Origin: Escherichia phage PSK1
DNA: 39,615 nt
Direction: 5' to 3' (one strand)
Sequence record: PP541512.1
Shown here in pieces: positions 17,417 through 17,923 of the stretch (positions are counted from its first letter, which is position 1; each line of letters opens with the position of its first letter). Under the pieces are notes generated by a model. That model was given only the letters and a program-made list of their open reading frames with translations, was not told the DNA's origin and made no database searches. A program made the translations under genes and the position numbers.

Positions 17417-17923
17417 ATGGAACGTAACGCTAACGCATACTATGAGCTGCTGGCTGCAACCGTTGAGGCATTTATCGAGCGTATTCAGTACGACCACCTG
17501 ACTCAAGATGACGACTACAGCGATGCGCTGCACGAGGTCGTAGGCGGTCAGGTCCCGCACTATTACCACGAGATTTTTACGGTGATGGCTGCTGATGGTA
17601 TAGACAACGAGTTCGAAGACTCTGGGATGATACCTGAAACCAAGGACGTAACGCGTATCCTACAAGCTCGCATCTATGAGGCGCTTTATAACGATGTGTC
17701 TAATAGCTTGGATGTAGTCTGGTTTGAGGATGAAGAGGCAGACGAAGAGGATGAATATTGGGTAGTTGACGCTAAAACAGGCGCAATAATTGTGCAAGCT
17801 GTAGCTCTTGAGGTCGCTACTGCATGTGCCAAGGTTAACTATGCGGCAGGTCGCCACCTGAAGGTGGAAGACATCAATGATAACGTAGTGTTCGACCCTG
17901 CGGCTGAGGACTGCGAGCGATGA
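17417..17923 (+). CDS. ocr: Ocr-like anti-restriction DNA mimic (gp0.3), with C-terminal extension
   Basis: VPHYYHEIFTVMAADGIDNEFEDSGMIPETKDVTRILQARIYEAL closely matches T7 Ocr as remembered; acidic throughout; 168 aa against 117 in T7. Confidence 0.85.
   Translation: MERNANAYYELLAATVEAFIERIQYDHLTQDDDYSDALHEVVGGQVPHYYHEIFTVMAADGIDNEFEDSGMIPETKDVTRILQARIYEALYNDVSNSLDVVWFEDEEADEEDEYWVVDAKTGAIIVQAVALEVATACAKVNYAAGRHLKVEDINDNVVFDPAAEDCER

Follow-up and report, generated by a model that had tools for sequence, protein, structure and literature searches.

Gene 0.3 of Escherichia phage PSK1 encodes a long form of Ocr (the textbook DNA-mimic anti-restriction protein, which also inhibits BREX and triggers PARIS), in which the familiar acidic core is followed by a linker, a folded module of 48 residues and an acidic terminal motif. 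The module appears to represent a family that accompanies Ocr cores and is maintained by selection, and that has nevertheless been lost repeatedly; this descriptive part of the account (core, linker, folded module, acidic end, Ocr-only family, selection and repeated loss) can be put forward with very high confidence. The novelty is best described as an undescribed accessory domain family on Ocr, and not as a new type of system. The literature on Ocr that was searched nowhere discusses such a module or tail, and long-form Ocr proteins appear, as far as that literature shows, not to have been studied experimentally.

Gene 0.3 and its genomic setting

The window analysed here (the whole stretch of PSK1 DNA in record PP541512.1, 39,615 bp) looks like an entire, circularly permuted Kayfunavirus genome, whose positions 15000-22000 are 98.8% identical to those of Kayfunavirus LI10P1. 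The ocr gene lies between the terminase large-subunit gene (beyond which come the genome-end and early-promoter region and then the early genes) and the RNA polymerase gene, in an order identical to that of K1F, and because of this early-region position the open reading frame at 17417..17923 (ATG start, 168 aa, TGA stop) is taken to be the equivalent of gene 0.3 of T7 and K1F. The features of the region are:

13844-15607, terminase large-subunit gene
17403..17409, + strand, Shine-Dalgarno sequence GAGAGGA, 7 nt 5' of the gene 0.3 ATG (read from the sequence)
17417..17725, + strand, Ocr core, residues 1-103, DNA-mimic helical domain including F54 (PF08684; phmmer to 1S7Z)
17726..17755, + strand, acidic linker EDEEADEEDE, residues 104-113, encoded by GA-rich repeats
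17756..17899, + strand, accessory module, residues 114-161 (YWVVD...VVFDP; AlphaFold2, dN/dS)
17900..17923, + strand, acidic end AAEDCER and TGA stop, with an EDCE motif common to module-less short-form Ocr
17920..18069, + strand, 49-aa early gene (K1F gp0.35 / T7 gp0.4-like), whose ATG overlaps the ocr stop (ATGA); context
19200-21881, RNA polymerase gene, 893 aa, 3' of the early region

The same leader with its Shine-Dalgarno sequence is found in the related locus L001. Close homologues of the 49-aa gene in loci L001-L003 and L029-L031 match Phage_T7_GP04 (PF26807) in precomputed Pfam annotation, and the PSK1 copy has no Pfam match at E<=0.01; the equivalent gene of K1F is annotated as gp0.35. 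In several Kayfunavirus and Przondovirus genomes in GenBank, ocr itself is labelled 'protein kinase', 'N4-like RNA polymerase' or 'receptor binding protein kinase', and these labels appear to be shifted or propagated mis-annotations.

The Ocr core, the linker and the terminal motif

It is near-certain, on the strength of sequence comparison, that PSK1 gp0.3 is an Ocr homologue with an intact DNA-mimic core. An earlier, sequence-only reading had recognised in it a 168-residue homologue of the 117-residue T7 Ocr, and the Pfam ocr profile (PF08684) bears this out by matching residues 8-94 with a score of 101 bits against a cutoff of 25 (E=5.7e-29). The alignment to T7 Ocr proposed in that reading also holds, over a range wider than the residues 35-110 or so that it had named: in a phmmer comparison with PDB sequences, PSK1 residues 11-113 align to residues 11-116 of T7 Ocr (1S7Z_A, E=7.1e-24). 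The PHROG 2568 profile ('ocr-like anti-restriction') matches the protein at E=7.7e-52 and reaches residue 142. Over residues 17-94 the identity with T7 Ocr is 57.7%, and the two proteins share their extreme acidity (PSK1 residues 1-113 have a net charge of -25), the location of an early gene upstream of the RNA polymerase gene, and residue F54 (EIF54TVMAADG in PSK1, aligned to DIF54SVMASEG in T7), which is needed for Ocr dimerisation (PMC9122126). They part company at the C-terminus, where T7 Ocr ends after its acidic tail, whereas the PSK1 protein adds the 48-residue module and an EDCER end. Ocr monomers are three-helix bundles that pair into a banana-shaped dimer; the full-length AlphaFold model of the PSK1 monomer is poor in the core (pLDDT 58-65 at residues 50-80, with helices merged), and a Foldseek search with it against the PDB returned nothing below E=0.5 and missed 1S7Z; this model was left unused for the core fold and for the relative orientation of the domains.

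The linker (residues 104-113) aligns to T7 Ocr residues 104-116 in the phmmer comparison, so that it would correspond to the disordered acidic C-terminal tail of the T7 protein; its pLDDT in the full-length model falls below 50 at residues 107-109. Everything beyond it (Y114-R168, 55 residues) is without counterpart in T7 Ocr, and the tail of about 50 residues quoted in the sequence-only reading was correctly given. The linker has the highest column entropy of all segments (0.90), and its length ranges from about 1 to about 25 residues across homologues. In Mt1B1_P3 (locus L011, 341-871) it has been expanded by a tandem duplication of a GA-rich repeat, EEEDEKAEEEDEKAE; further expansions are found in proteins P0100 (an insertion of 12 aa), P0109 and P0118, and in CLB_P1 the linker is nearly missing (..FEGEYW..). 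Since the linker can grow by duplication or insertion and can nearly vanish, the spacing between core and module seems to be unconstrained.

Short-form Ocr proteins, which carry no module, end in ...VVWFEAEEDCE (phiHAO2-2 and Vec13) or ...EESDDEEDCE (BDX03P1) in other Kayfunaviruses, and in ...EEEDCDD in KP32. Because short and long forms close with the same EDCE end, the module is, judged by these alignments, more aptly regarded as inserted after the acidic linker and ahead of a conserved EEDCE terminus than as simply appended to the C-terminus; the earlier reading was right to see an extra domain, and its placement of that domain as a C-terminal extension needs to be amended to this extent.

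Fold, conservation and selection of the module

When the module was modelled alone (48 residues, with an alignment of 41 sequences), AlphaFold2 returned a pLDDT of 97.8 and a pTM of 0.80, with strands at module positions 2-5 and 11-13, a helix at 18-30, and two further strands at 35-38 and 44-46. The same elements are present in the full-length model at pLDDT 84-89, on a linker below 50. With near-certainty, as far as such models can indicate, residues 114-161 are predicted to form a separate, compact and independently folding beta-beta-alpha-beta-beta domain.

Across 13 Kayfunavirus genes (78 pairs), the module has a dN of 0.151, a dN/dS of 0.33 and a mean column entropy of 0.65, and the Ocr core (residues 1-103) has values of 0.056, 0.19 and 0.31; dN is thus 2.7 times higher in the module than in the core, and substitution patterns in these sequences indicate that the module is under purifying selection. 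Together, the predicted fold and the dN/dS strengthen the earlier suggestion that the tail is an added domain and not an acidic repeat. Conservation is distributed unevenly within it. The beta3-beta4 hairpin, H147-P161 (HxKVEDINDNVVFDP), has an entropy of 0.34, as conserved as the core, and is near-invariant over the best 120 of 496 related protein clusters, whereas the loop and helix have an entropy of 0.88, and the variable positions 132/133, 140/141 and 143/144 make up one face of the helix.

The net charge of the module runs from -2 in PSK1 to -9 in K1F, and because it is net acidic the module is not a DNA-binding domain. The PSK1 helix allele (V140, N141, A144) is less acidic and is common to Kayfunavirus LI10P1 and a few others. 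The hairpin segment VEDINDNVVF (EDINDN being residues 151-156, at 17867-17884) resembles the inter-domain calcium-binding motif of cadherins, V.DINDN.P.F; it brought up cadherins and cadherin-like repeat proteins as weak matches, both among PDB sequences and in the profile search of 1.84 billion cluster representatives. The likeness is probably a coincidence, though a divalent-cation site at the EDINDN hairpin is conceivable.

Distribution and diverged subfamilies

A tblastn search with the tail alone recovered 71 GenBank phage records, at tail identities of 66-100%; in those that were inspected the tail was always in frame after an Ocr core and the phage was always a Kayfunavirus. The hosts of the tail-bearing phages are Escherichia, Citrobacter, Hafnia, Providencia, Salmonella, Klebsiella and Enterobacter. 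In a collection of 5.8 billion proteins, the best 120 of 496 related clusters are all of the long form (162-179 aa). Matches to the RNA polymerase gene number about 136 phage records at >=90% identity, and 219 records cover most of the gene; set against these figures, the 71 tail-bearing records suggest that between about one third and one half of Kayfunavirus-like genomes have the long form. The gp0.3 of K1F (169 aa) has the same order of core, linker, module and EEDCE end, with a module 68% identical to that of PSK1; its long form has been annotated since 2005, simply as Ocr. Kayfunavirus proteins of the 'ocr-like anti-restriction' group (PHROG 2568), K1F included, show only allelic differences from that of PSK1.

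The extension to which the sequence-only reading drew attention is accordingly the standard form of gene 0.3 in K1F and in many other Kayfunavirus phages, and is not peculiar to PSK1. Nor does it seem to be common to the well-studied Ocr proteins: it is directly seen to be absent from T7 Ocr, and by inference SP6 Gp5 should be without it as well, given that Gp5 superposes on T7 Ocr at 0.91 A (PMC11341690) and is absent from the tblastn matches to the module.

Among Ocr homologues whose match to the query was confined to residues 1-98, translation revealed other long forms: those of phage Ebrios (174 aa), Stenotrophomonas phage IME15 and five Aeromonas phages (172-173 aa), a group of 10 records in all, whose genus-classified members are Teseptimavirus, and that of Kosakonia phage Kc166A (183 aa). 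At least 82 of 570 Ocr-bearing GenBank phage genomes therefore carry an extra domain (71 of the Kayfunavirus type, 10 of the Ebrios type and the single Kc166A). The tails of the Ebrios group and of Kc166A align end to end with the Kayfunavirus module and occupy the same position after the Ocr core. In profile-profile comparison (hhalign), the Kayfunavirus module matches that of the Ebrios group at P=7e-5 and that of Kc166A at P=0.0018; in view of these scores and of the identical position, the three tail groups are considered to be homologous. They share only about 30-40% identity, and the reading frame has been kept in all of them. In the alignment of the three subfamilies W2 and E38 are found in >=90% of the sequences, A21, G32, V37 and P48 are invariant, and the VED hairpin and the aromatic-x-P end are common. 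The PSK1 module fits the family pattern (a W-hydrophobic strand, a hairpin, an S/x-L-E-x-A helix, Y..G, a V-E-D hairpin and aromatic-x-P), and the proposed family can be defined as an Ocr-associated C-terminal module of about 48-55 aa situated immediately behind the acidic linker that follows an Ocr core. Such diverged homologues, placed alike on their cores, show that module and Ocr have long been associated, and the absence of the module from many lineages probably reflects, in at least some of them, a loss.

In Ebrios and IME15 (loci L023 and L026), a SAM-related gene is located upstream and the long Ocr downstream, just before the 0.7 kinase gene. The upstream gene is annotated as an S-adenosyl-L-methionine hydrolase (gene 0.3) in IME15 and as a SAM-dependent methyltransferase in Ebrios; if it were a T3-type SAM hydrolase in both, each of these phages would hold two anti-restriction strategies.

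Searches for relatives outside Ocr

The module gave no significant match in Pfam, NCBIfam, PADLOC or PDB sequences, and a fold search of BFVD returned nothing at E<=0.001. When the Kayfunavirus module profile was compared with 1.84 billion cluster representatives, it retrieved only two repeat proteins, which are spurious (a short 'RHLEVEN / VxDINE' motif summed over repeats); the same search also missed true diverged homologues, which score 15-18 bits, so that its silence is not proof of absence. Plasmids contained no match to the module, the only three IMG/VR loci with a module are all Ocr fusions, and a profile of the three subfamilies found no module paralogue outside ocr genes in the PSK1 window and 31 further loci. 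An intact free-standing module was not found, and the short proteins that were recovered could be identified as the downstream half of a gene split by an extra G (P0002), a deletion remnant made up of the first 10 Ocr residues and the second half of a Kc166A-type module (P0125), and a 41-aa fragment (P0001). On these comparisons it is near-certain that, in the searches that were run, the module family was found only in fusion with Ocr cores.

Several marginal resemblances were considered and set aside. PDB profile matches to botulinum toxin and to cadherin concern the 'DINDN' motif only (E>=0.04). A PepSY match, obtained for four of 41 sequences, reached 19.5 bits against a cutoff of 24 and aligned module residues 3-15 to profile positions 46-60, that is, a 13-residue hairpin motif (VDAxTGxI) and not the whole domain; a circularly permuted, PepSY-like origin of the module would be pure speculation. 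HTH_64, the alpha-lytic protease prodomain and other marginal Pfam matches were below threshold. A ClpS-like adaptor, which would have a complete alpha/beta core, a ClpS sequence signature and an N-degron pocket, was likewise rejected: only a generic beta-alpha-beta unit of 40 residues was matched, and the ClpS sequence signal was absent. The small phage-encoded inhibitors T4 Dmd antitoxin and AcrIF9, and the ClpS core, are, like the module, simple alpha+beta folds, which amounts to resemblance and not to membership.

Loss, truncation and rearrangement of the module

The cores of short-form Kayfunavirus proteins are 96-100% identical to those of particular long forms, with 100% over residues 1-103 in the case of phiHAO2-2 (the PSK1 core is less close to most long forms), and because of this closeness the short alleles are best explained as recent deletions. 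In phiHAO2-2 the junction is visible, with a left flank, GCTGAAGAGG, joined to a right flank, GAGGACTGCGAGTGA, via a GAGGA microhomology, and Salmonella phage PRF-SP7 has a 127-aa Ocr that retains a remnant of the end of the module (..DSVVFDHAAAEDCE). From these junctions and flanks it is near-certain that the module has been lost repeatedly, apparently by deletion within the GA-rich repeats that flank it and encode acidic residues. Lineages with a deleted or truncated module remain viable phages, and the module is therefore conditionally dispensable in nature.

Further rearrangements were observed at the locus. In L001 (2667-3180), L002 and L003 (Logan SRR33193082-84), an extra G in the GGG run at the start of the module, TATTGGGG, splits the gene into a 117-aa Ocr (the length of T7 Ocr) and an overlapping 59-aa open reading frame that holds the module; this is either a natural truncation mutant or an assembly error common to three related runs. 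Protein P0101 (seven contigs) results from a deletion between two RHLK-coding repeats, which joins the module (..GRHLK) to the C-terminal half of a small downstream protein, AVYEGHKRIHDSLHAEDK; the fusion, whose partner is the 49-aa gp0.4-like protein, removes strands 3 and 4 of the module. In Escherichia phage vB_EcoP_IMEP24 (L010, 562-1122), the 'DNA mimic ocr' is a protein of 186 aa that runs through the first half of the module (as far as ..LKDAIA) and then continues with the C-terminal 50 residues of another early protein. In 23 other phages (SH3, pO2, Mt1B1_P3, Dev2 and SFPH2 among them) this partner has a gene of its own further downstream, and the fusion represents another deletion, which removed the gp0.4-like gene. 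Finally, in Kayfunavirus-like phages from three unrelated Logan runs (L029, 3001-3174; L030; L031), nearly all of ocr has been deleted, leaving a 57-aa open reading frame in which MERNTNAYYD, the first 10 residues of Ocr, runs on into the later half of a Kc166A-type module; so extensive a deletion may have been favoured where Ocr was selected against, for instance by a defence that senses it.

Possible functions of the module

The reading that we favour, tentatively, is that the two modules of an Ocr dimer, tethered at its outer ends, act as accessory binding heads, a proposal that has about one chance in three in this specific form and draws on an analogy with domain 1 of ArdA and on published facts about Ocr. 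The C-termini of Ocr, which we take from 1S7Z and from the published description of the protein to lie at the outer ends of the dimer and away from its central bend, would place one module at each end. The central bend is formed by residues 59-91, and T7 Ocr does not need its last 17 residues to act against EcoKI (PMC3439906). In a cryo-EM complex, BrxX is contacted by the C-terminal residues E107, E111 and E116 of Ocr (PMC11317158). ArdA (Orf18 of Tn916) resembles Ocr as a DNA-mimic dimer and carries an outermost acidic domain, composed of a small beta-sheet and one helix, on a flexible loop of 12 residues; this domain 1 is dispensable for anti-restriction and has been proposed to reach HsdR, and the DNA mimicked amounts to about 42 bp for the ArdA dimer and about 24 bp for the Ocr dimer (PMC2731889). 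The likeness is one of function: there is no sequence relationship and no clear relationship of fold, and domain 1 of ArdA is N-terminal in a rigid three-domain rod, whereas the module of Ocr lies on the C-terminal side, on a linker whose length varies. By this analogy, an Ocr dimer would carry two tethered acidic modules, one per outer end, which may hold on to surfaces beside the DNA groove in those same defence complexes (HsdR/HsdM, say, or the outer parts of PglX/BrxX), and might in doing so lengthen the mimic beyond about 24 bp and adjust its affinity or host range. In this picture the hairpin H147..VEDINDNVVFDP161, which is conserved and acidic, would be a contact or structural element, and the variable helix face (132/133, 140/141, 143/144) would co-evolve with host variants. 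A linker of such variable length is hard to square with a fixed geometric lengthening of the mimic, and the weak acidity of the PSK1 allele counts against tethered acidic heads. The explanation as a whole (a Kayfunavirus Ocr with linker, Ocr-specific module and tethered accessory heads) stands a little short of an even chance.

An independent second target would account just as well for the fast-evolving helix face and for the frequent losses. The module might be a separate small inhibitor domain that binds a different host protein, making gp0.3 a two-in-one anti-defence protein; it could, for instance, neutralise or evade the Ocr-sensing AriA/AriB of PARIS, or act on some other defence. Such a role would sit comfortably with a domain that folds on its own at the end of a flexible and variable linker, that evolves faster than the core with its variation gathered on one face, and that is repeatedly gained or lost, as would be expected of a conditionally useful part in an arms race. 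It would also be in keeping with the finding that PARIS senses Ocr and that T7 escapes by point mutation or loss of Ocr (PMC9122126). On the other side, true independent inhibitors usually exist as separate genes too, whereas the intact module was never met free-standing or fused to a non-Ocr protein in the searches that were run. That it is an undescribed, Ocr-specific family conferring a second anti-defence activity (by inhibiting a PARIS-like sensor or hiding Ocr from it, or by blocking an unrelated defence) is doubtful, if worth keeping in mind.

The remaining explanations are less probable still. A structural or regulatory accessory, which would stabilise or solubilise the acidic Ocr, guard its C-terminus against proteolysis, or adjust how toxic or how abundant the protein is, would agree with the viability of phages whose module is deleted or truncated and with a failure to find any homologue or motif of known binding function; the Ocr proteins of T7, SP6 and KP32 type function or persist without a module, however, the surface-exposed hairpin, VEDINDNVVFDP, is conserved like the core in a manner suggestive of a specific interaction, and the ClpS match that might have pointed to an adaptor is a generic one, so that this role seems improbable. 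Natural deletions, a frameshift and truncating fusions are frequent enough to raise the thought of a neutral passenger, a remnant of an old gene fusion that contributes nothing to fitness; that reading is largely refuted by the selection data, since a dN/dS of 0.33 is far below 1, the frame is retained over three subfamilies of such low identity and the hairpin barely varies in the best 120 clusters, and it is very unlikely to be correct. Least credible of all is a sequencing or assembly frameshift that artificially fused ocr to a downstream reading frame, an eventuality that the sequence-only reading had itself raised. The GGG run at the start of the module is indeed a frameshift-prone site, as the one-base insertion in L001-L003 attests, but the fused frame is conserved in 71 independent GenBank genomes and in the best 120 clusters, the split version is exceptional and is explained by a single extra G, and the PSK1 window contains neither a start codon for the module nor a separate module gene; a fusion of this kind can be regarded as ruled out, its probability being negligible.

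Implications for Ocr and its phages

The tethered-head reading and its alternatives differ in what they would mean. If the module were merely structural, the outcome would be a small refinement of annotation. The mechanistic work on Ocr that was found was all done with the short form of T7 or with the closely related SP6 protein, and several module-bearing genomes belong to therapeutic-candidate coliphages specific for K1 and O antigens; if the module widens or redirects the target range of Ocr, then the anti-defence content of these phages would be read differently, and a compact new binding module would have been added to those available. Natural long and short alleles whose cores are up to 100% identical, together with K1F as an isolated and long-cultured phage, make for an easy experiment. 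Were a second activity to prove true, gp0.3 would be a two-headed counter-defence protein, and the loss of its module and the turnover of its alleles would record an arms race.
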